A stretch of 37,874 nucleotides of DNA from Lentimicrobiaceae bacterium (GCA_007119395.1 SKPS01000251.1:1-37874); one strand, 5' to 3'. Shown: positions 15,773-37,874, counted from the stretch's first letter. Notes: a model not told the origin generated them from the sequence alone. Numbers and translations: made by a program.

Positions 15773-16888
15773 TTAGGAAGGGTCAGGCAATTGGGGTCTC
15801 TCTTTGTTGGCACTCAGATTGAGTCTTAACGAGAAGATATTTGAATAGAGAGCCGAAGAGGCATTGCCCAGGTTCGTCAATGCGTAGTCGATAATCACTT
15901 TGTTTCTGAAGACCAGTCCTGCACCCATATTGGGTTGAAAGGTTGTGATTCGTTTTCCGTCGATGGCGTACTCTTGCTGAATGTTTCCAACCCCACCCCT
16001 GATAAAGATAAAATCGCCCACTGAGAGCTCCAGTCCGGCGTGGGGATCTATGCTGAAAGGTTTCGAGCGAATAAGGGTGTTTCGTCTGCCATCGGAAGTG
16101 ATGTCGAGGTTCACTTCAGCATACAATGTGATCCGTTCACCTAAAGAGAAGCTGCGACCTGCTCCGGCCAGCAGTCTGGGCATTGTAATTTCCAGTGAGT
16201 TTTCAGGGATCTCATTGCCGGTTTGTGTGAATACATCAATCATTTTATCGGTCAGGTTAAACGACCAGGCATTGAAGGTGCTGGTAATGTCTCTGCCAAC
16301 GAGTCCAAACTTCCATTGATTGTATGAATACTGCACTCCAATGTCAAAGCCAAATCCCCATGCACCGGCAAAGTCACCCACTTTGCGTCGTATCACTTTG
16401 GTGCTTCCACCCAGGGTGAGCCCTTCGATGCCCAGCTCTTTGGCATAGGAGAGCAGCAGTGCGAAGTCGATGGCTGAGAAGGAGCGGATTCTGTCGTAGT
16501 TGATGTTTCCATTGGCGTCGATCAGTTCTGAGGTATCGGGGATGTCATCCACGGCAAAGCGTATGAACGTGATGCCTGCGGTGCTGGTGCGATCCATTTG
16601 TGCCACTACGCTGCCATAATCATACTTCGCGATGCCGGCAAAATATTCAGCATGCATCAGTCCCAGTTGCAGTCGGGTTGGTTTTTTCATCATACCGGCC
16701 GGGTTCCAGTAAGCAGCCGGAGCACCCTGGGCGGATGCCACCACGCTGTTGGCCATGCCGAATGACCGGGCATCAACACCCAGTGTCAGGAATTCATTGC
16801 TGTACTTGGGCGCCTGAGCCTGAACGAGAACCGGCAGGGATAACAGCAGCACCATGAATAGTGAAATCGTTCCGGTATTGTATCGCAT
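15773..16888 (-). CDS. porV: PorV/PorQ-family outer-membrane beta-barrel, probably PorV (T9SS shuttle protein)
   Basis: 371 aa. The signal peptide is MRYNTGTISLFMVLLLSLPVLVQA. The family-like N-terminal motif is FLTLGVDARSFGMANSVVAS...AAYWNPAG. Alternating beta-strand patterns run to the C-terminus. It lies 57 nt downstream of the PorU-like gene, as in the known porU-porV arrangement. Confidence 0.65.
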   Translation of the reverse strand: MRYNTGTISLFMVLLLSLPVLVQAQAPKYSNEFLTLGVDARSFGMANSVVASAQGAPAAYWNPAGMMKKPTRLQLGLMHAEYFAGIAKYDYGSVVAQMDRTSTAGITFIRFAVDDIPDTSELIDANGNINYDRIRSFSAIDFALLLSYAKELGIEGLTLGGSTKVIRRKVGDFAGAWGFGFDIGVQYSYNQWKFGLVGRDITSTFNAWSFNLTDKMIDVFTQTGNEIPENSLEITMPRLLAGAGRSFSLGERITLYAEVNLDITSDGRRNTLIRSKPFSIDPHAGLELSVGDFIFIRGGVGNIQQEYAIDGKRITTFQPNMGAGLVFRNKVIIDYALTNLGNASSALYSNIFSLRLNLSANKERPQLPDPS

Positions 16889-16945
16889 ATCTTATGTTAT
16901 AATTTTCTGATCATTAACGTAAAACAGTGAATGTTATTTCGGGGT

Positions 16946-19900
16946 TTAACGCATCAGGTACATTTTCCCCCACCCTTCTCTGAAGTAGGGGTCTGCTCCC
17001 GATGCCGCTCTTTCAATTTGCCGGTCACGAATACTGGAGTGTACACGATATAGGTATACACCGTTGGCTACACGGTCACCAAACTCGTCTGTACCATCCC
17101 AATAGCCCATGGTGATGTTCCGTCCAAGATTGATTGGCCCCAGTTCAGCCATTGTAAGCTCACGAATCACCCTGCCCGAAATGGTCATGATCTGAATCCT
17201 GAAATCGGTTGGCACTTCATGCCCGGTAAGGGTGAATACAAAATGGGTTTTTGTGGTGAAGGGGTTGGGCCAGTTGAGCACTTCGGTAATAGAAGCCTGG
17301 CTGATCACTTTGAAGGAGATCTGATATGAAACCGACCCTGACTCACCATACGACTTATCGGTTGCTTCCACCCTGAACAGGTAGGTTCCGTCACGCCCCA
17401 GGAAGTCAGCAGGAAAGAGAATACGGCACTGGTTGTTTGTGCCCGAAGCCGGATAAAAGATCATTTGTTCCACGCCACCTTTTCTGAAAAACAGTTGTTG
17501 AAATTCGCTTTCATGTGGCGACCTGAGGTATACTCTGAAAAGGGCGGTGTCTTCTGGTTGGTTGAAGAGGAAGAATGGGTTTTCATCGTTGAGTTGTATC
17601 TCAATCATGGGTTGTGCTGAGATGATATCACCATCGAGAATACGGATCCCGTCAAAGGTGACATCAAGCAGCGGGCTTTGGTCATCGGCAGTAACTTCGA
17701 AGTGGATTTCAGCCATGTTGTTGATGTGCGTCTGTTCCGGTTGGTCGTAGAATCCTGTTTGAGGATTTACTGGGTTCACTTCGATTATGAGGGTCGCGAG
17801 CCCCGGGGTGAGGGTTGCTGTAGGCAAGGTAAAATGGTCAATGAACAAGGTGTCACCGGCGGGATGTTCACGGTATCGCCGGTAGGTTGATTTATGTGTT
17901 TGGCGGTGGCTGTCAACGATCCAGCTGTGTACCAGTAGGCTGTCCATTGGCTGGTTGCTGATATTTCGTGTTGCAATGGAGAAGCGCAATGAATCTCCTT
18001 GCTGGATGGTGTCATGGTGAAACGTAAAGCGACTGGATGGGTCGAGTGCTGTTTCTCCAACGGGGGTGTAATACACCATCCAGGAGTGTAGCTGAGCAGG
18101 TGTTCTGTAGACATCATCGCGCATCTTTGCCTCGAAGCGGAGGGTTGGGTACACTTCTGCGTCCAGTATTTGGCTGAGGTTTACAATGCTGTCGGGATGA
18201 GGCTTGATATCGGCAAGGGCAGCTATGTGGTGAGGGTTCCCAAAGCGATCGATGGGTACCAGGGAGAACTTGACGGAGTCAGTGTTCTGCGGATCTGATG
18301 CGAGTGGCGACTGTTTCCAGAAGGCACTGCCCCACTCTTTTGCCGGTCCGATTTCGGTTGAGAGGATGGTTCCCTGATACCAGTTGATGTCCAATAGCCG
18401 GAGGATCCGTGTGGTGTCTGAACTGCCGGTTGACACCACTTCATGCACTTTGTTCGGGTCACCGATCGGAGCCCCTTTCTGGCCGAATATGATATATGAA
18501 CTGCCCGATGGCAGGTTTCTGATGGAGGCGCTTCCAATGGATTCGAATCCTTGTAGCACCGCTTCGGGCAATGATCCGGCATGGTGGTCTTTGATACTGT
18601 ATGCCAACACATAGTGCCCTGCCGGTATGGAGTCGAAAAAGGCTGCCAGCCGACTGGTCCAGTGAGAACTGTGTGTTGGAAACTCAAACGCGTTAAGCTG
18701 GGTTGCCGGGGCTTGGTAGTTGCCCCAATTGCCACTCCAGGTTGAGGAGGTGTTGATGGCACGTATTGGCTCTGCGGCGATGGTATCAAACACGGCAAAG
18801 ATGAACCCTCCCGGTAAGCTGTGCTTGATGATTTCGGAGGATTGATATTTGAAATTTCCGTTGATGGAGTAGTAGTGCTGGTTGGCATGGAGGGAGGGAA
18901 ACATCCCGGTTTGTGCGATAATCTCCCGCTGCCCGCTGATGAATTCAAAGACCCCTGCTGCCGGGTGGTGTACAATGTTCTGGTATTGGTTTTTGGTGAA
19001 CTGATGCGGGTGGGCCTGTGCCCATCCTGTTCTTCCAGGGATATACCTGAAAGAGCTGTGCCTCCAATCGGTAATCCCTTCCGGGTGGTCGAGGCTGTCA
19101 ACGCTTACACGCCAGAAATAGACAGCGCTGTCAATCAGCGTTATGGGCGGAGTCCAGCTAAACACCCCGCCGGTGCCCTGCAGAGATGAGGATGCCAAAA
19201 CGGTTGAGAATCCGGGGTTGTCAGACAGCTCGAAGTGGTATCTCTTATGGCTTGAAAAGGGATCAATGGTGCTGGCATACAATGTCACCTGCGGGTCAGC
19301 TACCACAGCGTATTCGTAAGGATATATCGGAAGCAGGCTCGATGCCTTGATGTGCAACGGAACGGAGGTGCTGTTGTTGGTCTCATCCGACTCCTGTATC
19401 TGAAACAGGGCGTCAAGGGTCACCTCAATCGTATTGAGGCCTACCCCAAAGGTCTTCTCCACAGGGAGCATCACCACAAAGGTGTCAATGAATGCTGTGC
19501 TGGGGAGATGCAACAGTGTGTCAAACAATTGTTGATCGGGGAAGGTTCTCCGAATGCTGACGGCAAAAGAGTCTTTGACCGCTTTGCCGGGGTTTTTGCT
19601 GATGATATGAACTGCAAAGCTATCAAGCTCATTGGAGATATCGGATGGTTTGAAAAAGACCTGTGACGGACTGATTTGGTAATCGGGCAGCTCCTGAACC
19701 GACAGTACAATGGCGGGGTCGCCATGCAATGTTGTTTGCTGGTAGGAAGCGACATGGTAAAAGATGGTGCTTGTGCTGAGCGGCCTCATGGCATGCCTGG
19801 TTAGCTCGCCCAGTGTTTTACCGTAACCAGCTCTTGACATATAATGATACAGCGTATCGTTGATCAGGTTGAGCGCATCAATGGTTGAGTAGTTGGAAGA

Positions 19901-22090
19901 ACCTAAATAGGCAATGGCTCCTTTGTTGGGGGTGAGCACAAACTCCTCACTTTTGGTGAAGGTGTTGTTAAACAGATCACCCGAATAACACGAATTGGCT
20001 ATGACAAGCGGATACCTCCCCTCATTTTGGTAGGTACTGACGGCATCGGTGCTGATATCGAACCCTGTAGCAGAACCGTGACCATAGAACGACATGATTC
20101 TGATCCCACTGTTGATCAGGTTCATCAGCTGTTGTGACTGGATAATCTCTATAGGCTGTGTTGTGGTTTTCAGGAAAGTAGTCACCTGTCCACCGAAATA
20201 GGGTGCTTCCAGTTTCTTCTCCCATTTGGCAAGGCTCGTTCTGATGGCTGTTTGTTCGCCCGCATTGATACCGCCTCCCAGATGAATCGCCCTTTTCATC
20301 CACATCTCATTGCGTAGCCTGAGAGAATCTTCGTATTGCCTCACCTTGTGCAGGTATGACAAAACCTGCCCCGGATCAGTCGCAGCCAGCCGGCCGATGC
20401 TGTGATCCTGCACATGCACAGGGCTCAGCCGGTTGATATACTTGTTGTCAGTGGCAGGATGCCCCCAGCCCGGCACCAGTGAATTCCTGAAGGCGTTGGT
20501 GTCTCTTCTGGTATGCAGTGTTGAATACCCCTTGCCAATGATAAAAATGGTTTGTGGCAGCACCTGGTGGTCGTACAGGTACTTCAGGAAGTTCTCAATG
20601 GCCAGCGGGTTGTTTCTGATGCCGTAAGAAAACTGTTCATACAGCGATTCCACGTTCTCTATCACAGGATCGTAGAGCGTGGGATACCCATTGTTGCGGC
20701 GGTATGTGGCATACGCATCGGCTGCCTGTTGCAAGGAGGGGTGTGTGATGATCAGGTAGTCGTGGCTGTTTTGCTGGTAATAGGTGAGGTAGTCGGTAAA
20801 CCTGTGACCTGTGGTTAAAGGGTATAACGCTGTGATGTTACGGATCATCCCTTCTGACGAGAGGAAGCACTCTTTTTCAGAGGGGTTTCCGGGCAGTGAG
20901 TTGGGTATAAGCATCTCTCTGGTATTGCCGGTAGTGGCTACCACGATGCGTCGTTGGTTGGTCAGATCGTACAATATGGGTTCTCCGAAAGGGACGGAGA
21001 GTTGCGTAAGCGACAAGTATGTTTTGGTATGGTTGGGATGATCGGGGATATACATCCAGCGTTCTGTGGCGTTGTTGAGGTTTGTGCCATGAGGGAAGGT
21101 GAGTTCTGCTCTGACAATCGAGTTACGGTCGCTGCGGGTGGGTTCCATCGACGGGTTGGTGCTCAGGTCATCAACAGCGGCGAAGTGAAATGAGGTTGAG
21201 AACCCTGTTGAGAGGGAGGTTGCAGGAATCTGTACCGAGCGCCTCATTACCTGGTATCCGAAGTAGGTGAAATCATCGAGGTGCCCTGATGCACCGGCTA
21301 TGGATACCCTTACATGGTGGTTCTTCCCCGGGTGAGCCGGAAACTGGTATATATACCTCGACCGCCCTACAATAGTGTACTGTAGCGTGGCAGGCGGTCC
21401 CTGCTGATAAACACCACGGGTTTGAAGATTCACTACCCTGGGGTTGGTCATGTTGGGGTCGATGCCGAAAGGGAAGTCAACCCAACCCTCCCCATCCATG
21501 TACCTGGAGTCCTTTGAAAAATCACTTCCAAGATACCCACCGGCGAAATAGGTACCCGCAGGCTCAAACCACGATTTGGTCTTAAAATAGGGCGCAGCAG
21601 CTCCATAATTCCCGAAATCCACGCTGCTCTCAATGATCAATCGCTTGTTGTTTGTGCCGGAACCGATGGTGAGGAAATAATACGCCGTATCTGTAAAAAG
21701 GCTGTATCGCTGGTTCACAGCAAACGAAGAGTCATGAAAGAGTTGCTTGTCGGGCTGTGCATCGTTGCCACTGCCGAAGAATTCAATGTAGTCACCATCA
21801 TTGAAGACGCCATCCTGTTCACCATGTACATAAATCGCCACCTCTTCCCCGTTACGGAACAGTTGTAGTCGTCGCGGATCAAAGCCCGGTGAGGTAAGCA
21901 CCCCTGAAAGCGCAAGTGTAGTGGAATCAATACGGTAAATGCCGGTTTGAACCACCGGAAACTTCCAGTAGTCCTGTTGTAAGGTTTGTAACACCCAATC
22001 ATTGCCGGTGCTGTGCTGTGATATCAGGGCGCCGGGAGCAAAGAGGGAGATGCCCAATAACCAGAACCATATAACGAGCTTGTGTCTCAT
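16946..22090 (-). CDS. porU: PorU-like C25 (gingipain-family) cysteine peptidase / T9SS sortase, unusually long (about 1714 aa)
   Basis: The start is set at ATG 22090 (MRHKLVIWFWLLGISLFAPGALISQ, a signal peptide); ATG 22099 is an alternative. PorU-type N-terminal motif: YWKFPVVQTGIYRIDSTTLALSG. C25 motif: DYLIITHPSLQQAADAYATYRR. A His/Cys dyad is formed by SFYGHGSA (His codon 20078-20080) and IANSCYSG (Cys codon 19988-19990), 30 residues apart. The C-terminus is CTD-like: NWPNPFTTKTHFVF...NGVYLYRV. Confidence 0.8.
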   Translation of the reverse strand: MRHKLVIWFWLLGISLFAPGALISQHSTGNDWVLQTLQQDYWKFPVVQTGIYRIDSTTLALSGVLTSPGFDPRRLQLFRNGEEVAIYVHGEQDGVFNDGDYIEFFGSGNDAQPDKQLFHDSSFAVNQRYSLFTDTAYYFLTIGSGTNNKRLIIESSVDFGNYGAAAPYFKTKSWFEPAGTYFAGGYLGSDFSKDSRYMDGEGWVDFPFGIDPNMTNPRVVNLQTRGVYQQGPPATLQYTIVGRSRYIYQFPAHPGKNHHVRVSIAGASGHLDDFTYFGYQVMRRSVQIPATSLSTGFSTSFHFAAVDDLSTNPSMEPTRSDRNSIVRAELTFPHGTNLNNATERWMYIPDHPNHTKTYLSLTQLSVPFGEPILYDLTNQRRIVVATTGNTREMLIPNSLPGNPSEKECFLSSEGMIRNITALYPLTTGHRFTDYLTYYQQNSHDYLIITHPSLQQAADAYATYRRNNGYPTLYDPVIENVESLYEQFSYGIRNNPLAIENFLKYLYDHQVLPQTIFIIGKGYSTLHTRRDTNAFRNSLVPGWGHPATDNKYINRLSPVHVQDHSIGRLAATDPGQVLSYLHKVRQYEDSLRLRNEMWMKRAIHLGGGINAGEQTAIRTSLAKWEKKLEAPYFGGQVTTFLKTTTQPIEIIQSQQLMNLINSGIRIMSFYGHGSATGFDISTDAVSTYQNEGRYPLVIANSCYSGDLFNNTFTKSEEFVLTPNKGAIAYLGSSNYSTIDALNLINDTLYHYMSRAGYGKTLGELTRHAMRPLSTSTIFYHVASYQQTTLHGDPAIVLSVQELPDYQISPSQVFFKPSDISNELDSFAVHIISKNPGKAVKDSFAVSIRRTFPDQQLFDTLLHLPSTAFIDTFVVMLPVEKTFGVGLNTIEVTLDALFQIQESDETNNSTSVPLHIKASSLLPIYPYEYAVVADPQVTLYASTIDPFSSHKRYHFELSDNPGFSTVLASSSLQGTGGVFSWTPPITLIDSAVYFWRVSVDSLDHPEGITDWRHSSFRYIPGRTGWAQAHPHQFTKNQYQNIVHHPAAGVFEFISGQREIIAQTGMFPSLHANQHYYSINGNFKYQSSEIIKHSLPGGFIFAVFDTIAAEPIRAINTSSTWSGNWGNYQAPATQLNAFEFPTHSSHWTSRLAAFFDSIPAGHYVLAYSIKDHHAGSLPEAVLQGFESIGSASIRNLPSGSSYIIFGQKGAPIGDPNKVHEVVSTGSSDTTRILRLLDINWYQGTILSTEIGPAKEWGSAFWKQSPLASDPQNTDSVKFSLVPIDRFGNPHHIAALADIKPHPDSIVNLSQILDAEVYPTLRFEAKMRDDVYRTPAQLHSWMVYYTPVGETALDPSSRFTFHHDTIQQGDSLRFSIATRNISNQPMDSLLVHSWIVDSHRQTHKSTYRRYREHPAGDTLFIDHFTLPTATLTPGLATLIIEVNPVNPQTGFYDQPEQTHINNMAEIHFEVTADDQSPLLDVTFDGIRILDGDIISAQPMIEIQLNDENPFFLFNQPEDTALFRVYLRSPHESEFQQLFFRKGGVEQMIFYPASGTNNQCRILFPADFLGRDGTYLFRVEATDKSYGESGSVSYQISFKVISQASITEVLNWPNPFTTKTHFVFTLTGHEVPTDFRIQIMTISGRVIRELTMAELGPINLGRNITMGYWDGTDEFGDRVANGVYLYRVHSSIRDRQIERAASGADPYFREGWGKMYLMR

Positions 22091-22188
22091 AAACAACATA
22101 TTGTCAGTGCTTTTGCCATGTTCAGGTGAAGCGCCCGGATGGGTGGATCCGGGTTGCCGTTGGCCCGTTGAACAGGTTCTGCACGCCA

Positions 22189-22196
22189 CAAAGATA
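22189..22196 (-). promoter_or_regulatory. candidate internal -7 box upstream of porU (TATCTTTG on the minus strand)
   Basis: The + strand caaagata is TAnnTTTG on the minus strand. It lies in the only sizeable gap of the array (about 173-182 nt, MBOAT stop to porU start), 90-99 nt upstream of the porU ATG. Confidence 0.3.
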
Positions 22197-22272
22197 GCGA
22201 TCAAATAGAAACCAACGCATAATGAAACAATCCATTGTATGGTTTGTTGATGCAGCAACCACAAGACCAAGG

Positions 22273-23940
22273 CTAAAACTGGAAATAGATAAATGGCTGC
22301 ATGTCGGCTGAGATCGACTGGTAAATGATAAACACCACTACACAGCTGATCACGACCTTCGCCCACATCGGAGTGCGTATAAACCATTGCTGATACTTCT
22401 CTTTCAAACGGCTTGGCCACCAATGCAGGATAAATCCAAACAACATCATCAAAAACACATTTTTATACCCCACTAAGATATCCGGAATCAACCCCCACTG
22501 GAAGTCGTTGGCAATCTGATGCATCAGTTCATAAGTGCCCTCCATGGATTCACCCCTAAACCAAATGCGCGTAAAGGTGATAAAATTGAAGGTCAGAAAG
22601 ATCTTCCACACCGTAGCAAGTCCGTGATTTGCTTTTTCCCACGGGCTGATCCGCCGCCAGTACTTGTAAAAGATCACCCCCAAGCCATTCAATCCACCCC
22701 AAATCACGAACATCCAGCTGGCACCGTGCCATAAGCCGCCCAGCAACATGGTGAGCAGGATGTTGATGTTGGTAGTGATGTGTTTCTTTAGTGATGGGAT
22801 CAGCCTGGTAAGGAGCCAGATAATTGAGAAAGAGCCTGCCATGATGGGTATCAGCAGCAGTTCGCCCGATATCATAATCACAAAGAGGAGGATGGCGGAG
22901 AGACTGATCCAGGTAAACAGTGACCCGCGACGGTTTCCTCCCATTGGGATGTAGAGATAATCTTTCAACCACGACGACAGAGAGATGTGCCACCTTTGCC
23001 AGAACTCGCCCGTGTTCCTGGCTTTATAGGGTGAGTTGAAGTTCTTCGGCAACCGGAAGCCCATGAGCAGTGCAACCCCTATGGCAATATCAGTGTAGCC
23101 TGAGAAATCACAATAGACCTGAAGTGAATAGCCGTATAGGCTCATCAGGTTTTCAAACCCTGTGTAACTAAGGTGGTTGCTGAAGACCCGGTCAATGAAG
23201 TTCACCGCGATATAGTCGCCAATTAAAATCTTCTTGATCAACCCCTTCAGGATCATCCAGACAGCCAGTCCAAACTCAGCCTTTGTAAGGGAAAAGTCTT
23301 TGTATAACTGTGGGATAAAATCGGCAGCGCGAACAATAGGCCCCGCCACCAGCTGAGGGAAGAACGAGACATAAAATCCGAAATCGATCAGGTTGTTTAC
23401 AGGCTTCACCAGCCCTCGGTAAACATCCATCGAATAGCTGATGGTTTGAAATGTGAAGAAGCTGATGCCAACGGGTAGCAGAATAGCCCCTACATCGAAC
23501 CGGGTTCCGGTGGTAGTATTGGCAATCAAGGCCAGGTGATTCACCACCTGGTACTGTGTTCCGATGAAATTGTTGAATGACTCAACAAAGAAGTAGGCGT
23601 ATTTGAAGTAGCTGAGCAGTCCCAGGTTCACAAAAATACTCAAGCCGACCAATAGCTGTTTGGCGAGGGGTTTTTTACTGCGGTATATTCCCCTGCCTAT
23701 AAAAAAGTCGGCAAGGGTTGAGAATATCAGAATAAAGAAAAAGAACCCTGACGATTTATAGTAGAAGAACAGGCTTGCGAGGAAGAGGTATCCGCAACGG
23801 ACTGTTTTGTTTTTTGATTTTCCCAACACCGAGTAGAATATCAGCACCACCAGGAAGAATGCCCAGAAGGCGAACCGTGTAAAGATCAGCGGTTGCTCTT
23901 CGTTGTAGGTGAATATGGCATGTAGATATTCCTGTATCAT
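22273..23940 (-). CDS. MBOAT-family membrane O-acyltransferase (AlgI/PatA/DltB-like)
   Basis: 555 aa and polytopic. Motifs: FFTFQTISYSMDVYRG and the conserved His block FWQRWHISLSSWLKDYLYIPMGGNR. Confidence 0.9.
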   Translation of the reverse strand: MIQEYLHAIFTYNEEQPLIFTRFAFWAFFLVVLIFYSVLGKSKNKTVRCGYLFLASLFFYYKSSGFFFFILIFSTLADFFIGRGIYRSKKPLAKQLLVGLSIFVNLGLLSYFKYAYFFVESFNNFIGTQYQVVNHLALIANTTTGTRFDVGAILLPVGISFFTFQTISYSMDVYRGLVKPVNNLIDFGFYVSFFPQLVAGPIVRAADFIPQLYKDFSLTKAEFGLAVWMILKGLIKKILIGDYIAVNFIDRVFSNHLSYTGFENLMSLYGYSLQVYCDFSGYTDIAIGVALLMGFRLPKNFNSPYKARNTGEFWQRWHISLSSWLKDYLYIPMGGNRRGSLFTWISLSAILLFVIMISGELLLIPIMAGSFSIIWLLTRLIPSLKKHITTNINILLTMLLGGLWHGASWMFVIWGGLNGLGVIFYKYWRRISPWEKANHGLATVWKIFLTFNFITFTRIWFRGESMEGTYELMHQIANDFQWGLIPDILVGYKNVFLMMLFGFILHWWPSRLKEKYQQWFIRTPMWAKVVISCVVVFIIYQSISADMQPFIYFQF

Positions 23941-28388: not shown

Positions 28389-30215
28389 CTACCGGGAGCG
28401 ACCCGGCCCAACATCCTGGTTCACGCGGGTGCGTTCACCCCTGCGATATACCACCTGGTATAAAACACTCCCCCTGTTGTCGTAAAATGTCCATGTGCCA
28501 TGTCGTTGGCCACGCCTGAATGATCCTTCAGACTTCTTTCTTCCATTGGCATAAAACTCGGTCATTTTCCCGTGGAGTTCTCCCCTTCTGTAATTCTGCA
28601 TCTTAAACGGAACACCGTTTCTGTCGTAGAATTTCCACTCACCGATCCGTTTACCGTTTCTGTTTTGCCCTGTTTCCTGAAGGATTCCTGTATCATACCA
28701 AACCGAACTCCTACCGTGTAACAGTCCATTACGGTAATGGCTCTCGGAGCGCTTAAGCCCTGAAATATAATAGTGTAGCGAAATGCCGTGGCGTACCCCC
28801 TTGTCATAAGCAACCACATATCTTGGTTTGCCATCGTCATAAAAGCCTTTCCATACCCCATCCATCTCCCCTTCAACATAGGCTCCTTCGTCTTTGACCT
28901 GTCCGTTATCAAACCAGTTCATCCAGTACCCATGGGGTTTACCATTTTTATATTTCCCCTCTTGTAGTTTCTGCCCCGATTCATACCAGGTGGTCCATAA
29001 TCCGTGGCGCACCCCCTCTGTGAAGTGACCACGTCGCCACGACTCACCGGTAGAATACCAATACGCCCACTCTCCGTGTTGCAACCCTTCAGAAAAAGGG
29101 CCCTTGCTCGCACGTCCACCCTTTTCATGGTAAAAGACCCAGATGCTGTCTTGAAGATCAGCAATCAGTGCACCCTCCATTTCCTTGTTGCCGTTTGCAA
29201 ACCACCAGGTGGCGTAACCGTGCAGACTGTCGTTTTTATAATACCCTTCAAACTCAGGGTTCCCATTGCGGTGCCATGAACGGGCCGGTCCTTTCCTGAC
29301 TCCCTGTACATAGGTGATCTCCTCGCTCAGGTTGCCGTTTACATGCCAACGGGTACTCTTTCCATCTTTTACGCCATGGTGCCAAAAGACCTCCTCCCTG
29401 AGCTGCCCCGATGAAAACCACTGACGCCAAATCCCCTCCTTCTCTCCATTCTCAATCATCCCCTCCTCACGCAATGAACCATCCTGAAACCACGACCTGT
29501 TCATGCCATGGGTCAGATTCACCTCGCTCATCTTCTGGCCATTGGAATACCAGCTCTCCCACAAGCCAATCTGGCGCCCCATATCGTAAGAACCACGCGT
29601 CTGTAGTTGACCGTTGGGATGGTAACGCTTCCACTCACCATCATTCATCCCGTCACGTAACTGCCCCTCCTCTTTGAGCTGACCATTCTCATGCCAATGC
29701 CTTGAAGGGCCGTTCTCCAAATGAATCTCGCTCATCAACACCCCTTCCGGCGACCAGGCACTCCACTTGCCGGTCCGCACACCCTCAGCATACTCCCCCT
29801 CAACCATCAACTGTCCCGACTCATAAAACCCCTTGTAGGGCCCATGTAACTTCCCGTTGACCATGGTGCCCTCCTCCATCAAACGACGATTGGAATGCCA
29901 TACACGGTACGGGCCATTGCCGTAAACAATCTCGCTGCGAATGTTGCCGTCAGGATGCCAACTGCGCCATAAACCCACCTTCTCGCCGGCGCTGGAGTAG
30001 CGCCCCTCTCGCATCTTCCGACCATTCGAATAGAAATATACCCACTCCCCGACAGGGACCTCCGCGGTGTCAACCTTTGCCTTGGCACCCCTGGTCGCCA
30101 ACTGCCCATTCGGCCAATAGGTCTCCCTTGTTTGCTGTGACAGAACACAGACTGGCAACAACAACATCAACAGGAATAGTGTCGCCGTCATACGTATCTT
30201 TGTCTTCCGTTCCAT
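28389..30215 (-). CDS. exported MORN-variant / YwqK-type repeat protein
   Basis: The start is set at ATG 30215 (MERKTKIRMTATLFLLMLLLPVCVLSQQ, a signal peptide). The rest is about two dozen tandem ~23-aa repeats of the form [WYFH]xxNGQLxxEGxYxxGxxxGxW. Confidence 0.8.
   Translation of the reverse strand: MERKTKIRMTATLFLLMLLLPVCVLSQQTRETYWPNGQLATRGAKAKVDTAEVPVGEWVYFYSNGRKMREGRYSSAGEKVGLWRSWHPDGNIRSEIVYGNGPYRVWHSNRRLMEEGTMVNGKLHGPYKGFYESGQLMVEGEYAEGVRTGKWSAWSPEGVLMSEIHLENGPSRHWHENGQLKEEGQLRDGMNDGEWKRYHPNGQLQTRGSYDMGRQIGLWESWYSNGQKMSEVNLTHGMNRSWFQDGSLREEGMIENGEKEGIWRQWFSSGQLREEVFWHHGVKDGKSTRWHVNGNLSEEITYVQGVRKGPARSWHRNGNPEFEGYYKNDSLHGYATWWFANGNKEMEGALIADLQDSIWVFYHEKGGRASKGPFSEGLQHGEWAYWYSTGESWRRGHFTEGVRHGLWTTWYESGQKLQEGKYKNGKPHGYWMNWFDNGQVKDEGAYVEGEMDGVWKGFYDDGKPRYVVAYDKGVRHGISLHYYISGLKRSESHYRNGLLHGRSSVWYDTGILQETGQNRNGKRIGEWKFYDRNGVPFKMQNYRRGELHGKMTEFYANGRKKSEGSFRRGQRHGTWTFYDNRGSVLYQVVYRRGERTRVNQDVGPGRSR
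28440..30120 (-). repeat. protein-level tandem array of about 24 MORN/YwqK-type repeats
   Basis: I counted the repeat cores by eye: WPNGQL, YSNGRK, HPDGNI, YESGQL, HENGQL, HPNGQL, YSNGQK, FQDGSL, FSSGQL, HVNGNL ... YANGRK, YDNRGS. The boundaries are approximate. Confidence 0.65.
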
Positions 30216-30234
30216 AGCTGGCAAAGATATAAGG

Positions 30235-31489: not shown

Positions 31490-31570
31490 ATGCAGAAAAA
31501 CAAATTCACTCTTACTGCAACAGTCACCCTCTTTCTGCTTTGGGCTCTCTTTGCTATTCCGGTCAAAGCG
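31490..31570 (+). other. Sec (type I) signal peptide of the giant ORF
   Basis: A K-rich n-region (MQKNK) is followed by a hydrophobic core (TLTATVTLFLLWALFAI) and a VKA/QQ cleavage-like site. There is no lipobox Cys. Confidence 0.7.
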
Positions 31571-34500
31571 CAGCAAATTTTTGTGTTCATCGAAATGCAC
31601 CCAATGCCACCGGCATCGCTTTATCAATGGGACCGTGAGGGGATGATGATGTTTGTTGTTGCTGACAATATGAGTACGACCACCCACCAGGCACACCTGA
31701 TGGTGGAATTGTATGATGAATATGACCGGTTGGTAGGGGAGAGCAGGTCGCCACGTGTTGTCAACATTGCACCCGGATTCACCGAGATACCTCATCAAGG
31801 GTTGCTCACCTCGGGTGGGTTTACCTTTTTGGATCCACTCCGAAGGCCGATGCAAAACACCGGAATCTTCCCGGAGGGAGAATACAGACTTTGTATCAGA
31901 CTTGTTGATGCCGTGACCAACGTGGTCCTCTCCGATGAAGCCTGCACCTTTTTTATGATTCAGGGTTTTGAAGCCCCTTATTTGCTGTATCCTGAGGATG
32001 GTGTGGTTCTTTCTGAACCGCAACTGTTGAGTACGGTATTTCAATGGACACCTTTTATGGGCGATCCTTTTCTTTCCATCGCCTATCGGTTGGTGATGGT
32101 TGAAGTCTTACCCGGACAATCTGCCTATGAGGCTCTGCTTGTAAACCAACCAGTGGTTCAGGAGACCGTGGAGGAGCCTTTCTGGCAATGGGACGACAAA
32201 TACGTTACCCCCAAGCCGGAAGCCTCCTATGCCTGGTCGGTGGTGCTTACCGATGTTGAGACAGGGCGTGACCAAACCTCCTATGCTCCACCCAGAGTGA
32301 TCGTTTTCTGGCCTGCTGATACCATTCCTGTTACCGATCCCCCTATAGACATCCCTCCGTACGATCCACCTCCCGAAGACCCGCCCGCAGAAGCGTGCGA
32401 TCCCCCCGATTACACTCCGGAACCCGCTACACCTATATCGCTCGGCATGATGGTCGACGACTCTGAACTGCACCTCTACCCAAGGGCCGTCCCCATCAGG
32501 GCAGAAGCCATCGACTGGGACCTGCTCTGGCTCTATTGCTCCGGCTGCGACGGAGGCAGAAGCGAAGAACCTATGCCGGTAATGGATGAAGTGCACGACT
32601 TTACCTGGGAACTTATCGATGGTAAAGGGTCTCTCAATATCCCCTTTGACCCTTTCAGATTCAATCAAATCAAAGACTCCCTGCAAAACATCCATAAACG
32701 CATAACCGAAATTGAAGACTCGCTCATCCAAATAGCACAAGACACACTCGAGCTACCGAATCGAACAGAAGCCCACAAAGCACGCATCGAAGAAAAAGAG
32801 ACAGAAAATACCGGCCTCGATTCGCTTATCGCACTTATCAATGACACCCTGCAGGTGATCAATCAACAACGCGGTGACCTGTTTGATGACATCAATGCTT
32901 TGATCGGCCAAACAGACAGCATCCAGCATTTGATATCCAACCTCCTGGATGAAATTGATTCCCTGAGATATTTGCTGAGCGGACCGCCATCAGAAGAGGA
33001 GCTGACACAACGAACGGTTGTTGCAGACCATCGTACGGTGCTCACAAACCTTCAGGAAGAATTGATAAAACATGAACAGGAAACAACAAAGCAATCCGAT
33101 GCCCTGAAGCAAATCATACAGGATGCGAAAGATGTGCTGGATGCAGCTGCTACTGCGTACAATGATCAAAAAGAGATATCTGAAAACATCTCAAAAAAGA
33201 TTGCTGAAGAGGAGATCAAGCTGCTTGAAGACCCCGACACCCGTGATTTTTTGCTCCACAGAAGGTTCTGGTACGGTACTGCCAGCGGCTTCATCGTTGA
33301 ATATGCCATGGGTCAGCATATTGGGCTATACAACACGATGGACAACCTGTTCAGCCAGTCGAAAAATTGCCTGATTGAAACCGATACCACCGTCAGACAT
33401 GCCTGCCATAACACTTTCGACAACAGTCTGGTAGGATTGTATCAGCAACTGACCAACCGTTGCGCTGCCCTCCCACCGCACGAACGCCACGACTGCATCG
33501 AAGCTTTCTCTTATGTAACGCAAACATATCAGGATTTCAGGCAGACCATGCAGCGTCTTGTGTACTCTGAATACCTCTATCCAGTTCAAATCGAGATCAC
33601 AATTGACAGCCTGAGGCAGGTGTTGCTGGCGATGGAAAGTGTGATGAATGCTGCACAAAACCAGGTTGAACAGTCAAACCAGGCTTACAGCCAGGCTCTG
33701 TCTGATTATGTAGAGGAAATGCAACTGCTCGACAGTCAGAAAGCTGATATGCAGCAGAACATCGTTGAACAGGCTGACTCTCTTTCAAGACAGGAGCACA
33801 AGTACAACCTGCTGGTGCAGGCACGAAAGGATGAACTGGAAAGAAACAGAGAGCAGTTCCTCGAAGGGGTGCATGCCGCAGAAAGCAGCATCAACTCCAT
33901 GGAGAGTGCAATTGATCATTTGCAGGATTCTTTGAGTACACTCTATGCTGACACCTTTGGCCTTTTCGTGATCAAAACAGAATTTGAAGAAGAGAAGGAG
34001 AGGCTTGAAGCGCTCAAAGAGAAAAACGAGGAGCTGATCCACAACCTTGTTGACCTGATCGATGCGTTGGAGCAACGTATTGAGGCCCTTAAAAGGCGAG
34101 CTGAAGAGTTGATGGATGAAATGGAAGCGCTCAGGGAGCAGCAAGAGAGTCTGGAGGAGGAGCAGGTGGAGGAAATGGCTGGCAACACCTCGGCCACGGG
34201 ATACTATGTGTACTATATCCCGCCGCCATTGGAAGAGGTGATGAAAGACAAAGGGACTTACCCGAGGTTTGAAGCGCTTCGCGACAGTGTTAAAGCTGCC
34301 GAAGACTCCCTTCAACTGGCATATTTCAAAAAAGAGCAGGTGCAGCGTATTATTGCCCTCGAAACAGAACGGATTGGAAGGGCACTGGTTGAATATAAAA
34401 AGAGTGAGGACCAGATCAATGCATTAAATGATCAGGCCACGGAAGCAGAAAAAGAGTTGGCCAGGAAAAAAAATGAGATAACGCAGGAATTTCACAACCA

Positions 34501-37500
34501 GCAATTGCAATTGCAGGAGTTGCTCAACAGTGCAGAAGAGAACCTCAACAAAGCATTGCAGCAAAAGGAGGATTACACCTCCGACAGTCTCAAGGTGAAA
34601 GAAGACCTGGAGCAGATGGTTCGGAGCATCACGCAGCATGACAGTTTACTGAGTCTGTTGCAACAAACCATCGAAGACAAGCAAAACGAGCTGAATAACA
34701 AGCAGGAGTTGTTAAGGGCAGCAGAGCCTACCCTTGCTGATCAATCCAACGAGTTGGAAGCGAAAAGGCGATTGCTCAGGGAAAGAAATACTGCCTTATC
34801 GCAGCTCAACAACCACCTGTCCAGGGCCAATGTGATGGGGGAGCAGGAAGCGATCAGGCAGGTGAGGGAGCTCATTAAAGACACTGAAGACGAAATCAAA
34901 ACGCTGGAGGAGACCGATATCCCGGCCAAGGAGCAGGAGGTTGCCGGGAGTGCAGCCAGTGTTCAATCTGCTGAAGCAAGTGTGTCAACAGCCAGGGAGC
35001 AGCTTGGGGTGTTACTCGGGAATCAACAGCAAAAACGCCTGCAGGCCAGAGAGCTGCGCGACAGCCTTGTGAAAGGGAATGAGGCATACGCCGAAGTGTT
35101 ATCCGGCCTTGAACATTGGCGTAGGGTTGAAAGATTGGCTCACCGATTGATCCGGAACACGAACCAGGCGCGTGAGGAACTCCAGGATCATGTTGAAGAC
35201 CAGATAGGTCAGGATGAAGAGGTGTCAGCACATGAAGAGAACCTTGAAAACATCAAGCAACAGATTGAAGAGCATGAAAATGCGAAAAAGGATGCCATTC
35301 ATGCTATCAATGAGTCTGTTGCAAGGAAAGAGCGTGCGATAAACGAAGCTGATAAGCAACTTGCCAAAGCCAAAGCCAATCTTGAGGAGGCGGAAGAGGA
35401 GTTTCGTGCGTTTTTGGTCGAAGAGTTTGAATCAGTGGAGATTGAAGCAACCATCCGTTTAAGAGCGAAAGACGCCGTGATTGATGCTTTTCGTGCCGGA
35501 GATGAAGAAGCCGAATTGATTAAAACGATCCGCTACGAAGGCTCCCGTATTCCCGTTTTTGAAAATGAGCCTGCAATAGAACAGATACCGGATGAGCCGG
35601 ATGTGGCGAGCGTTTGTCTGGTTCAGGAACTGCTGGAAGAAGGTGCGCTGCCTGCAGAAATGACACCCCCACGTGTTCTGCGACCCGAACCGCGTACCAT
35701 TGCACTTGTCTATGAGGATGGGAAACCTCTGTGGGAAGAATGGCCTGTGTTTAGAAATACTGATGTGATTGCCAAAGATGTGGTGGAAGTGTATGCTGAA
35801 TTCACTCCTGACTTTGATCAACTGGAGATTAAGTGCTACACAGCCGATGGTAAATGTGATGAAGTGAAAACCCTGGAAAGCATCCGTGACCAGGGACCTT
35901 ACCAATGGAAATACGAGGGTCGTAATATTGGAAACCATCCGCTCCAGAACAGGTTTCTCTGGGAACCCCGTTTTGTGGAGAAACCGCTGCCTGAAGAGAA
36001 ACTGGAAATTGAGGCGTTGCTCATTGCCAATCATTTGGCACCTGATGATCCTGTTGACAGCGATGACAGCATCCTGGTGATTCCGGGTGTGTTGGTAGAG
36101 GTAACCGACAACCTGGTGGGTATTCCGGACACAACCATGGAAGTGCAGGCACGGGTTGTTACCGGTGACCATAAAGGGTTGGCAGGCGAAGACATAGAGT
36201 TTTCAGTTGAACGAATGGCTGGTTCATCCGAAGACTATGGCTTTGATGGTGACACCATCATCACCGTTCAAACCGATGGTGACGGGTATGCGAAGGCCGA
36301 TTTTGATTTTGGTGATGGCTTTGCCCGGTTCAGGATTCATGCCAAATGGTTGCGCGATAGCGTGGTGATCGATGAGGAAAGTTTTGATGCCATCGCTCCA
36401 ATCCGATTGAGTATTCACAGGTTTTCGGCTGGTGCTCCACCTTTTGCTTTTGATGCAGCACTGGAAATAATACAATCTGAAGGTGATGTGAGTCAGGAAA
36501 AAATAGACGAGCTGACAGGCGACTTCCCCCCATCCGTTGGGGATGATGCCGGCCAGGACTATGCTTACGTTGTACGTGCAATTGCCGGACTGTTAAATGA
36601 GGAGCGTGATGCTGCTGAAGATGAAGAGGTGCTTTTTGAGCTGATGCCGGAAGAGGCAGGCATTGACCCGGAAGAGACCCGTACGGGGGCTTTCGGACTG
36701 GCCTTTGCGATCGTGAAAGACCTCCCTGATGAAACCAATCTGCTTCTCAAAGCATCAGTCGAAGATGCCTATCAACCGTTGGGCCGGCCACCGAAAGACC
36801 AGGCCACCTATAACACAAGCCTGTTCGACAGGTTCCGGATCGGCTCAAAAGACAACCTGTTTGTCGTGATCCTGGATGAGCCCGTTTCTGAAGGGGAACT
36901 GATCTCAGGAACTGGGAGACTGGGTGTGGCAGATGATGGCATCAGCGATGGTATCATGAATGAATTGATGGAGGTGAGTTTACACATCAACGAAGTAGAG
37001 CTGGCCGACAACGGCGAAGATCGTATCGCGGTTGCAGGCTCGGTTTCATGGAGCAGCGCAACATCTGTTAGCAGAAATATCCTGGGCTTTGACGTGGGTG
37101 TAGACTCCTTTGTGGTTACAGCCTCCCTGGGAGGCGGGATTGGCGGCGTTATCAGCCATAACTCCCTGTCAGCACCGGTAAGGTTCTATGCCGAAATTGA
37201 ACCTACTGGCGACTTCCTCGGAACAATAGAAAACATCCCCGCCATAGAGTTAGGTGGCTTTAAGTTAAGAGAAGGCTCCTCCTTCACCATTGACATGCAT
37301 AAAATGAAAAGCCCTCCAGGCTTTGCAAACAATTTCAGTGGCGTGGTCATCCACTCAGCAAGCCTGGAACTGCCTGCAGTTTTTGCAACCGAAGCAACCG
37401 GCAGACCTTCCCGTTTGCATGTGAAAGATTTTTTCATCGGTTCAGCCGGTATCGGCGGAGAGATCAGCTATGCCGGTTCCATCTTCAGACTGGGATATGC

Positions 37501-37874
37501 CGGTTATGCTTTCGAAGCCGACAGCATAGGCCTCAAATTTGAAAACGACAGCCTGATCTCAGGCGTCTTTAGCGGTCGAATCCACCTGGCATCACCGATG
37601 GAAGGGAGAATCCGAACAACCATCACCGCCGCCGGAAGTGGTTGGGCCGCAGATGTATCCACCGACAACCCAGTCTCCATACCACGATTGAGAACATCCT
37701 TCTCACTCCTGTCAGGTACAGGCATCCAATGGAATCAACCTACCAGTACCGGAACCCTCACCCTCAATGCCATTGTGACATCTGAAACCATCGGAGAAGT
37801 TACCGTGATGGGACTTGAAGTCAACTCAAAAGGTGAAATCAAAGCAGATGAAATCAGCATCGACAAAGCAGTGA
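31490..37874 (+). CDS. giant exported modular coiled-coil protein of unknown function, 3'-truncated by the window edge (at least 2128 codons); absent from the supplied ORF track
   Basis: I translated the frame line by line; codon starts are at positions congruent to 2 mod 3. In-frame TAA TAA at 31472-31477 is followed by ATG 31490. There is no stop through the last full codon, 37871-37873 (GTG). The N-terminus is MQKNKFTLTATVTLFLLWALFAIPVKA/QQ. An open frame of this length cannot plausibly arise by chance. Confidence 0.92.
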   Translation, partial: MQKNKFTLTATVTLFLLWALFAIPVKAQQIFVFIEMHPMPPASLYQWDREGMMMFVVADNMSTTTHQAHLMVELYDEYDRLVGESRSPRVVNIAPGFTEIPHQGLLTSGGFTFLDPLRRPMQNTGIFPEGEYRLCIRLVDAVTNVVLSDEACTFFMIQGFEAPYLLYPEDGVVLSEPQLLSTVFQWTPFMGDPFLSIAYRLVMVEVLPGQSAYEALLVNQPVVQETVEEPFWQWDDKYVTPKPEASYAWSVVLTDVETGRDQTSYAPPRVIVFWPADTIPVTDPPIDIPPYDPPPEDPPAEACDPPDYTPEPATPISLGMMVDDSELHLYPRAVPIRAEAIDWDLLWLYCSGCDGGRSEEPMPVMDEVHDFTWELIDGKGSLNIPFDPFRFNQIKDSLQNIHKRITEIEDSLIQIAQDTLELPNRTEAHKARIEEKETENTGLDSLIALINDTLQVINQQRGDLFDDINALIGQTDSIQHLISNLLDEIDSLRYLLSGPPSEEELTQRTVVADHRTVLTNLQEELIKHEQETTKQSDALKQIIQDAKDVLDAAATAYNDQKEISENISKKIAEEEIKLLEDPDTRDFLLHRRFWYGTASGFIVEYAMGQHIGLYNTMDNLFSQSKNCLIETDTTVRHACHNTFDNSLVGLYQQLTNRCAALPPHERHDCIEAFSYVTQTYQDFRQTMQRLVYSEYLYPVQIEITIDSLRQVLLAMESVMNAAQNQVEQSNQAYSQALSDYVEEMQLLDSQKADMQQNIVEQADSLSRQEHKYNLLVQARKDELERNREQFLEGVHAAESSINSMESAIDHLQDSLSTLYADTFGLFVIKTEFEEEKERLEALKEKNEELIHNLVDLIDALEQRIEALKRRAEELMDEMEALREQQESLEEEQVEEMAGNTSATGYYVYYIPPPLEEVMKDKGTYPRFEALRDSVKAAEDSLQLAYFKKEQVQRIIALETERIGRALVEYKKSEDQINALNDQATEAEKELARKKNEITQEFHNQQLQLQELLNSAEENLNKALQQKEDYTSDSLKVKEDLEQMVRSITQHDSLLSLLQQTIEDKQNELNNKQELLRAAEPTLADQSNELEAKRRLLRERNTALSQLNNHLSRANVMGEQEAIRQVRELIKDTEDEIKTLEETDIPAKEQEVAGSAASVQSAEASVSTAREQLGVLLGNQQQKRLQARELRDSLVKGNEAYAEVLSGLEHWRRVERLAHRLIRNTNQAREELQDHVEDQIGQDEEVSAHEENLENIKQQIEEHENAKKDAIHAINESVARKERAINEADKQLAKAKANLEEAEEEFRAFLVEEFESVEIEATIRLRAKDAVIDAFRAGDEEAELIKTIRYEGSRIPVFENEPAIEQIPDEPDVASVCLVQELLEEGALPAEMTPPRVLRPEPRTIALVYEDGKPLWEEWPVFRNTDVIAKDVVEVYAEFTPDFDQLEIKCYTADGKCDEVKTLESIRDQGPYQWKYEGRNIGNHPLQNRFLWEPRFVEKPLPEEKLEIEALLIANHLAPDDPVDSDDSILVIPGVLVEVTDNLVGIPDTTMEVQARVVTGDHKGLAGEDIEFSVERMAGSSEDYGFDGDTIITVQTDGDGYAKADFDFGDGFARFRIHAKWLRDSVVIDEESFDAIAPIRLSIHRFSAGAPPFAFDAALEIIQSEGDVSQEKIDELTGDFPPSVGDDAGQDYAYVVRAIAGLLNEERDAAEDEEVLFELMPEEAGIDPEETRTGAFGLAFAIVKDLPDETNLLLKASVEDAYQPLGRPPKDQATYNTSLFDRFRIGSKDNLFVVILDEPVSEGELISGTGRLGVADDGISDGIMNELMEVSLHINEVELADNGEDRIAVAGSVSWSSATSVSRNILGFDVGVDSFVVTASLGGGIGGVISHNSLSAPVRFYAEIEPTGDFLGTIENIPAIELGGFKLREGSSFTIDMHKMKSPPGFANNFSGVVIHSASLELPAVFATEATGRPSRLHVKDFFIGSAGIGGEISYAGSIFRLGYAGYAFEADSIGLKFENDSLISGVFSGRIHLASPMEGRIRTTITAAGSGWAADVSTDNPVSIPRLRTSFSLLSGTGIQWNQPTSTGTLTLNAIVTSETIGEVTVMGLEVNSKGEIKADEISIDKAV
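32312..32434 (+). other. proline-rich linker in the giant ORF
   Basis: The translation reads PADTIPVTDPPIDIPPYDPPPEDPPAEACDPPDYTPEPATP. Confidence 0.8.
32660..35440 (+). other. coiled-coil-rich rod region of the giant ORF (about 925 aa, with two non-helical inserts)
   Basis: E/Q/L/K/A-rich heptad-like sequence runs throughout, for example IKDSLQNIHKRITEIEDSLIQIAQD, EKERLEALKEKNEELIHNLVDLIDALEQRIEALKRRAEELMDEMEALREQQESLEEE and KQLAKAKANLEEAEEEF. The boundaries were set by eye. Confidence 0.75.
36068..36349 (+). other. bacterial Ig-like (Big_1/invasin-type) module in the giant ORF, tentative
   Basis: SILVIPGVLVEVTDNLVGIPDTTMEVQARVVTGDHKGLAGEDIEFSV...TIITVQTDGDGYAKADFDFGDGFARFRIHAKW follows the pattern V.D..G.P....V.F......G....TD..G.A typical of Big domains. 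Confidence 0.45.

Follow-up and report, generated by a model that had tools for sequence, protein, structure and literature searches.

A 37,874-nucleotide stretch of DNA from a Lentimicrobiaceae bacterium (GCA_007119395.1, SKPS01000251.1:1-37874; hereafter the window) encodes on its + strand a very large, predicted Sec-exported protein, hereafter the giant, with a coiled coil of ~920 residues. Structure modelling and comparison with homologs indicate that this coil most likely forms two antiparallel hairpin arms of ~27 nm each, one made of helices A and B with a head and the other of helices C and D, and not one rod. The gene is a single open reading frame (ORF) with its ATG at 31490 and no stop codon as far as 37873, so that 2,128 amino acids are encoded within the window; a near-identical protein of 2,528 amino acids (P0001), differing from the window protein at 7 residues, supplies the full length.

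An AlphaFold2 (AF2) model of residues 375–1335, built on an alignment of 12 sequences (mean predicted local distance difference test score (pLDDT) 76), is helical over residues 403–1309 save for one 54-residue loop. With the homologs, it divides the region as follows.

32696..33223, + strand: helix A, residues 403–578, with a conserved break at 497–501 (GxPTxEE); AF2 model, period 3.5, homolog lengths and register track.
33224..33583, + strand: head at the tip of arm 1, residues 579–698; AF2 model, alignment and a period of ~3.7.
33584..34129, + strand: helix B, residues 699–880, 26 heptads, 182 residues unbroken; AF2 model, homolog lengths, A×B covariation and mirrored register break.
34130..34291, + strand: inter-arm linker, residues 881–934; alignment and translation check, pLDDT below 50 in the monomer model.
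34292..34837, + strand: helix C, residues 935–1116, 26 heptads; AF2 model, homolog lengths and period 3.52.
34838..34843, + strand: tight turn of arm 2, Gly1117-Glu1118; AF2 helix break.
34844..35416, + strand: helix D, residues 1119–1309, with a break at 1242; AF2 model, C×D covariation and mirrored register break.

Each long helix shows a hydrophobic periodicity of 3.48–3.54 residues. In the family-mean profile this signal reached z 7.8–15.4, and none of 500 shuffles matched the observed power at the heptad period; the N- and C-terminal regions had no 3.5-residue periodicity, except for a weak signal (z 3.3) at residues 1400–1800. The head consists of four short helices (582–691 in the AF2 model) with an invariant pair of cysteines, Cys658 and Cys669. 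Its period of ~3.7 is that of an ordinary helical bundle, so it is not a heptad coil, and a profile search of the PDB with this insert returned no relative. The linker carries the motif VYYIPPPLEE (nucleotides 34208–34237), the core of which, YYIPPPL, is invariant in the alignment. The turn of arm 2 tolerates insertions and deletions: its length varies between homologs, whose sequences here abound in G, N and D. On the model and the periodicity, the long helices are genuine coiled coil.

The lengths of these segments are nearly fixed. Across 59 homologs (at most 80% mutual identity, roughly 20–40% identical overall to the giant), helix A measured 180 ± 1.8 amino acids, B 182 ± 0.8, C 182 ± 1.6 and D 192 ± 2.4, with 120 ± 4.5 for the insert that forms the head and 52 ± 1.3 for the inter-arm loop; 182 residues are exactly 26 heptads. 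Coiled coils normally gain and lose repeats freely, and such constancy of length is unusual. Arms that vary by no more than one or two residues among 59 homologs bear the mark of a molecular ruler, a rare feature that can be tested by experiment. At 0.1485 nm per residue, each arm would be ~27 nm long, against ~138 nm for a single rod.

The pairing of the helices was tested from sequence alone. Mutual information with average-product correction (MI-APC), calculated with a reduced alphabet, was averaged along each anti-diagonal (antiparallel) and diagonal (parallel) for the six helix pairs, ~2,000 offsets in all. The clear maximum was antiparallel pairing of C with D at i + j = 2238 (z 5.8, rising to 7.1 with a wider band), and the whole cluster of offsets 2233–2243 was high. 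The centre of this pairing, residue 1119, falls on the AF2 break. Five of the six bins into which the arm was divided carry the signal, among them 935–965 against 1273–1303, ~340 positions apart, and it is therefore not an effect of proximity in the sequence. Among offsets with nearly full-length helix overlap, the next best signal was antiparallel pairing of A with B at i + j = 1283–1286 (z 3.7–3.8; all six bins positive), where 1283 equals the sum of the AF2 helix ends, 403 + 880. When the sequences of one helix were permuted, excess mutual information for C×D was 0.038 at 2238 as against 0.020–0.026 at 12 control offsets shifted by whole heptads; for A×B it was 0.027 at 1283 as against 0.018–0.023. 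Because both peaks stay above the control offsets, they are not an artefact of column variability.

The register of the helices agrees with this pairing: the sole register break in A (497–504) faces the sole one in B (779–786), and a register shift in C (994–1001) faces the break in D at 1242. Foldseek comparison of the coil model with the PDB gave nothing significant (best E 0.6); the weak matches were long hairpins, namely RipA (178 columns, 6.5 Å), the colicin E2 R domain (121 columns, 6.5 Å) and SMC arms. Between helices of different arms (A×C, A×D, B×C and B×D), covariation gave no in-register signal, so we describe two separate hairpins and make no claim that the four helices form one bundle. 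An attempt to correlate smoothed conservation at mirrored positions yielded no distinct peak and was abandoned.

These results can be set against a preliminary description of the same DNA, which had placed a coiled coil at 32660–35440 (residues 391–1317) within an exported protein. That claim is borne out by the AF2 helices, the periodicity and the conserved signal peptide. The stretch had been called overwhelmingly rich in E, Q, L, K and A; it is enriched in them (48%, against 30% elsewhere in the giant) and poor in P and G (3.8% against 15%), and 'overwhelmingly' overstates the difference. The coil had also been divided into segments of ~189, 187 and 385 amino acids. The first two (391–579 and 709–895) lie within ~15 residues of A and B, and their proposed pairing as a near-equal fold-back arm is supported by the A×B covariation and the mirrored breaks. 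The 385-residue third segment is not a single unit, and would instead be helices C and D of an antiparallel hairpin, with a two-residue break between them. A globular insert suspected to be a hinge-like head does appear to cap arm 1, though not as an SMC hinge. Last, the description had noted that a continuous rod, on the order of 100 nm, would be far wider than a periplasm. With two arms of ~27 nm in place of a rod of ~138 nm, this paradox disappears.

The regions that flank the coil place it in a wider superfamily.

31490..31570, + strand: Sec (type I) signal peptide, residues 1–27, read from the sequence; predicted cleavage before Gln28.
31577..32332, + strand: N-terminal two-lobed domain, residues 30–281, a probable divergent relative of the TANFOR delivery domain; hhalign and BLAST.
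32441..32659, + strand: pre-coil module, residues 318–390, with the invariant motif PRAV..D.D..C..C..D..W..G.G.
35663..35989, + strand: post-coil module, residues 1392–1500, with the motif EPRTIAL..W..W..D.D..C..C..W.
35990..37873, + strand: first part of the all-beta C-terminal region, from AF2; it continues to residue 2528, outside the window.

The N terminus, MQKNKFTLTATVTLFLLWALFAIPVKA followed after the predicted cleavage point by QQ, is a type I signal peptide, and a like N terminus is present in 37 of 48 long homologs, usually with cleavage between Ala and Gln. The other 11 have no clear hydrophobic stretch; they look truncated, because several begin at non-ATG codons or within the conserved N-terminal domain. 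By its sequence, then, the giant is a Sec-exported protein. The pre-coil (70 amino acids) and post-coil modules appear homologous to each other (hhalign probability 92%, E 7e-7), and a folded-back coil would bring them together.

Coil-less relatives of ~1,700 amino acids match the giant over residues 24–281 and ~1900–2528 and show no match in 390–1320, where they carry fn3 domains instead. Because these relatives share both flanks, the coil is best read as an insertion into an older architecture, and hairpins fit such an origin in that they let the ends of the insertion return to one point. Judged from these alignments, the coil is a lineage-specific insertion, and the superfamily that received it comprises exported proteins from Bacteroidota and related phyla (the Fibrobacteres–Chlorobi–Bacteroidetes (FCB) group). 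An exhaustive profile search with the C-terminal region recovered roughly 45–50 near-full-length family members among cluster representatives, plus remoter proteins; searching for homologs with a profile of the N-terminal domain yielded mainly short fragments and contributed little.

In the AF2 model, the C-terminal region (pLDDT 72) is all-beta and ends in ~45 long strands joined by tight turns. It had no Pfam match, a profile search of the PDB returned nothing meaningful for it, and Foldseek gave only generic beta matches (the ApoB belt, LptD, SlpA, the FimD usher and alpha-2-macroglobulin), with template modelling scores (TM-scores) of ~0.1. A tblastn search of phage genomes with this region found nothing, and profile searches of the PDB with the N-terminal domain and with the barrel partner described below likewise returned nothing meaningful. 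The last residues of the giant, DVGYTIHL, match the outer-membrane beta-signal pattern; the region consists entirely of hairpins, and its Foldseek TM-scores to barrels are ~0.1. Residues ~1920–2330 of P0001 (37250–37873 of the window and beyond) are distant kin of DUF6603 proteins that have no signal peptide. One such relative, of 2,496 amino acids, adjoins a phospholipase D-like gene on a Mycetohabitans megaplasmid (L027 11905-19395).

The family was found in 25 species-level genomes in a search of 185,579 species genomes. The hosts are mostly Bacteroidota, Ignavibacteria, Chlorobiota and Balneolaceae, and one of them, Saccharicrinis sp. FJH54, is in culture. The set of genes that is conserved as a unit numbers only three. 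Besides that of the giant, these encode an fn3-array protein, directly downstream of the giant in 25 of 26 loci (~675 amino acids, a signal peptide and 5–6 tandem fn3 domains), and a predicted barrel of ~560 amino acids, adjoining in 24 of the 26, with a signal peptide and a C-terminal ...RF consensus (...YAYHF here). The barrel protein has no match in Pfam or NCBIfam; its homologs, all named 'hypothetical', give only weak generic OMP_b-brl hits. Some loci (L003, L009, L010, L015, L017, L020 and L022) belong to metagenome-assembled genomes that carry the labels Armatimonadota, Hyphomicrobiales, Desulfobulbaceae or Chromatiales. Their cassette is the same as in Bacteroidota-type loci, with family signal peptides mostly cut between Ala and Gln, and the labels may reflect binning errors or gene transfer.

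The N-terminal domain links the giant to a class of toxins. TANFOR toxins of Bacteroidetes have a Sec signal, a ~147-amino-acid N-terminal domain, in many cases fn3 domains, and variable toxins; the route of their export is not known and has been tentatively assigned to type IX secretion (the T9SS) (PMC7073777). That study mentions neither a coiled coil nor an adjacent barrel, and we found no later work on the mechanism of TANFOR export. The N-terminal domain of the giant matches that of the coil-less relatives with an hhalign probability of 99.5% (E 2.8e-23, 251 columns) and the deaminase toxin of Niastella with a BLAST E of 8e-13. Many of the large coil-less relatives keep this domain and differ at their C termini, which are EndoU, WHH nuclease or deaminase domains, with weaker matches to a restriction-endonuclease-like family and a pre-toxin domain.

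The same barrel family is encoded directly upstream in 12 of ~19 coil-less metagenome loci with upstream sequence, and it recurs in named strains. In Niastella sp. OAS944 (L053 10001-17900), next after the barrel come a 1,607-amino-acid protein with a deaminase toxin at its C terminus and, beyond it, SUKH/SMI1 immunity genes; plasmid pEMTOL03 of Emticicia oligotrophica (L055 7028-17544) encodes, in this order, a 614-amino-acid barrel homolog (E 1e-42), a 2,719-amino-acid 'HNH endonuclease' and an SMI1/KNR4 protein. A coil-less cassette of Flavobacterium sp. GT3R68 (L052 10001-18535) comprises a 558-amino-acid barrel, a 1,634-amino-acid exoprotein and a 641-amino-acid fn3 protein, adjoins a LytTR-type two-component system and a thioredoxin gene, and may serve as an experimental model. 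The C terminus of the giant itself is conserved across the family, not polymorphic, and the genes downstream are those of the fn3 protein and the predicted outer-membrane barrel.

The barrel gene, which adjoins these genes in most loci and goes unmentioned in the TANFOR study, is a concrete candidate for the outer-membrane route of TANFOR proteins, open since 2020. We tentatively suggest that the ~560-amino-acid barrel family may supply what the TANFOR class lacks, a partner for export or presentation at the outer membrane, with the giant as a structural exoprotein bearing ruler arms. This is a possibility rather than an expectation. If true, Bacteroidota would have a pathway like two-partner contact-dependent growth inhibition (CDI) made from unrelated parts, in which the twin 26-heptad arms would set the reach of the apparatus. 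Cultured strains with related cassettes (Saccharicrinis sp. FJH54, Flavobacterium sp. GT3R68, Niastella sp. OAS944 and Emticicia oligotrophica) make genetics and imaging feasible. Large TANFOR-related exoproteins of Bacteroidota are known already. In the literature that we searched, we found no description of twin fixed-length hairpins, a conserved non-toxin C terminus or a barrel partner, and nothing specific on the family, on DUF6603, or on exported SMC-like or periplasm-spanning coiled coils.

Taken as a whole, the data are best explained by an exported twin-hairpin giant that is presented by the barrel and uses its arms as fixed-length spacers, an account that we hold to be probable on balance. 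All four helix ends would come back to one hub, made of the N-terminal domain, the two homologous beta modules and the 1,200-amino-acid beta-rich C-terminal region. Much as in two-partner secretion, the barrel might anchor the giant at the outer membrane or present it there. The arms could then act as rigid spacers of a fixed ~27 nm, and the head and arm tips would be held at that distance from the hub, to contact another cell or envelope layer. The data show the export signal, the coiled coil, its fold-back topology, the conserved lengths, the gene cassette and the kinship with proteins that bear toxins. From these features we infer what the barrel does, that the arms are spacers and that the giant sits at the outer membrane or beyond it; our best guess at function is a fixed-length spacer in a contact-type system that depends on an outer-membrane protein.

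Several observations weigh against this account. For the pairing, AF2 gave secondary structure and confidence only, and so offers no direct distance support; covariation does not separate an intrachain hairpin from antiparallel pairing between two chains, although pairing within one chain is the simpler reading because the C/D turn is only two residues; and the A×B signal is moderate, a partial-overlap offset of another helix pair having reached z 4.2. For the location, Pfam and NCBIfam searches of P0001 found no known signal for crossing the outer membrane (no T9SS C-terminal domain, two-partner-secretion (TPS) domain or lipobox), and the barrel partner has no POTRA or Omp85 signature. The DUF6603 relatives of the C-terminal beta region have no signal peptide, which counts against a membrane barrel formed by that region itself. 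For the kinship, the direct TIGR02542 score was 13.4 bits (E 0.056; residues 122–158 on profile positions 110–145) against a cut-off of 67, so the giant is a divergent TANFOR relative that falls outside the class as curated. Pfam shows no toxin domain in it and it has no immunity gene, and a role in antagonism is suggested only by its relatives.

Much of the evidence would also suit the main rival, a periplasmic scaffold, in which the giant stays inside the outer membrane and hangs from it by its beta-rich C terminus and the barrel; the 27-nm arms would then reach across the periplasm to the peptidoglycan or the inner membrane and serve the envelope as a ruler or tether. A Sec signal with no recognised outer-membrane export signal, invariant cysteine pairs suited to an oxidising periplasm, and the strict conservation of length expected of a ruler all speak for it. 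Envelope widths are commonly quoted as 20–30 nm (for example, in work on Lpp length), and the ~27-nm arm comes close to them. Even so, we consider a scaffold rather unlikely. The family is rare (25 loci in 185,579 species genomes), unlike a core envelope component; no peptidoglycan-binding or inner-membrane anchor domain was found with Pfam; and kin with the same N-terminal domain bear nuclease or deaminase toxins, which must exit the cell (PMC7073777). That kinship with polymorphic toxins would instead fit a giant that is itself a delivered effector, with a C-terminal beta region that inserts in membranes, hairpins that span the target envelope as in colicin Ia, and a head that binds a receptor. 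The layout proposed here, a tip that bears the head and a base that holds the remaining domains, resembles that of colicin Ia; the ~45 long strands or hairpins of the C-terminal region and the phospholipase D-like neighbour of the distant DUF6603 kin on the Mycetohabitans megaplasmid point the same way. Against it stand a conserved cassette with no immunity gene, a C terminus that is conserved and not polymorphic, and a Foldseek search in which likeness to pore-forming toxins went no further than generic beta matches (TM-scores ~0.1). We judge it unlikely.

The remaining alternatives concern the coil itself. One extended rod, a parallel dimer or trimer like M protein, a myosin tail or an adhesin stalk, would give a fibre of ~100–140 nm. 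It would account for the sustained heptad signal, and AF2 confidence alone is no bar to it, as AlphaFold can score isolated long helices confidently. Such a rod is contradicted by the C×D antiparallel covariation, which tops ~2,000 offsets and runs along the whole arm, by four helices equal in length with mirrored register breaks, and by the two-residue turn and the coil-less relatives, which require the chain ends to rejoin; we regard it as very improbable. The preliminary description had also likened the protein to SMC. One database labels a homolog 'chromosome segregation ATPase', and there are weak SMC model matches, which could suggest a cytoplasmic SMC-like protein with a signal peptide that is an artefact of gene calling. 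The matches score 28–34 bits against cut-offs of 567–729 (TIGR02168, 33.7 bits against 567), are confined to the coiled coil and reflect only its composition. Pfam found no ATPase head or hinge domain and no SMC_N or AAA match in the giant. The signal peptide is conserved in 37 of the 48 homologs, the cysteine pairs are conserved and the partner genes encode exported proteins, so that a cytoplasmic SMC is scarcely credible and the resemblance holds as an analogy only.

Several known systems resemble the giant in part. The SMC, Rad50 and MukB proteins share with it intrachain antiparallel coiled-coil arms, chain ends that are brought together and a distinct tip domain; the giant differs in being exported, in having no ABC ATPase head or SMC hinge, and in having two arms per chain. 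Among exported hairpin stalks, enterococcal PrgA, the receptor-binding hairpins of colicins Ia and E2/E3, the alpha-hairpins of periplasmic adaptors and mycobacterial RipA/RipC are extracytoplasmic antiparallel hairpins that hold a head or span the periplasm. The weak Foldseek matches of the giant fall here, none of them significant (E 0.6 or worse), and its arms are much longer (182 residues), paired and near-invariant in length. The OmpM, SlpA and Omp-alpha tethers have a signal peptide, a coiled coil and a large C-terminal beta region in the same order as the giant, which in turn has no SLH domain in Pfam, an antiparallel hairpin rather than a parallel trimer, TM-scores of ~0.1, and relatives of its beta region that carry no signal peptide.

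Two-partner secretion of the CDI type (CdiB/CdiA/CdiI) offers a closer parallel in gene order: the relatives are arranged as barrel, exoprotein and immunity gene, with a shared N-terminal domain and variable C termini. CdiA holds its binding domain at the far tip of a stalk of ~30 nm, from which the chain then returns. The differences are a predicted barrel with no POTRA or Omp85 signature, a giant with no TPS domain or FHA repeats in Pfam, and a stalk that would be an alpha-helical hairpin, not a beta helix. With TANFOR toxins (Jana, Salomon and Bosis 2020, PMC7073777; TIGR02542), the giant shares large size, a Sec signal, a conserved N-terminal domain, fn3 neighbours and a home in Bacteroidota. 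Its N-terminal domain is clearly homologous to those of proteins with the TANFOR plus fn3 layout that end in EndoU, WHH or deaminase domains; it differs in having no C-terminal toxin or immunity gene, and in its 1,200-amino-acid beta region and 930-amino-acid twin-hairpin insertion. Three further types of protein left no trace in the giant. No T9SS cargo domain was matched in full-length P0001 with Pfam or NCBIfam, although the window encodes PorU2/PorV2; Pfam gave no match in P0001 to the YadA-type anchor of trimeric autotransporter adhesins; and AsmA/DUF490 (TamB/AsmA-like) had no Pfam match and was absent from the top 50 listed Foldseek matches of the C-terminal model.

The PorU2/PorV2 genes lie on the - strand at 15773-22423, where a PorU2-like C25 sortase (1,825 amino acids; NF052324, 675 bits) stands beside a PorV2-like protein (371 amino acids; NF052325, 482 bits). 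By these profile matches, the two form a second T9SS-type sorting pair in the source genome. The region 28389-30224, also on the - strand and two genes upstream of the giant, encodes a 611-amino-acid exported protein made nearly entirely of MORN-variant repeats, which scores under the cut-off of the LIC20035 adhesin family. Within the giant, six of the seven differences between the window protein and P0001 fall inside the helical region (positions 692, 711, 1002, 1003, 1080 and 1091), which makes up well below half of the length compared; that at 692 sits in the head insert. Finally, the long antisense ORFs that had been remarked on opposite the coil are indeed there (84–237 amino acids), and are expected because the sense strand is purine-rich, the AT skew of the coil region being +0.23 to +0.24.

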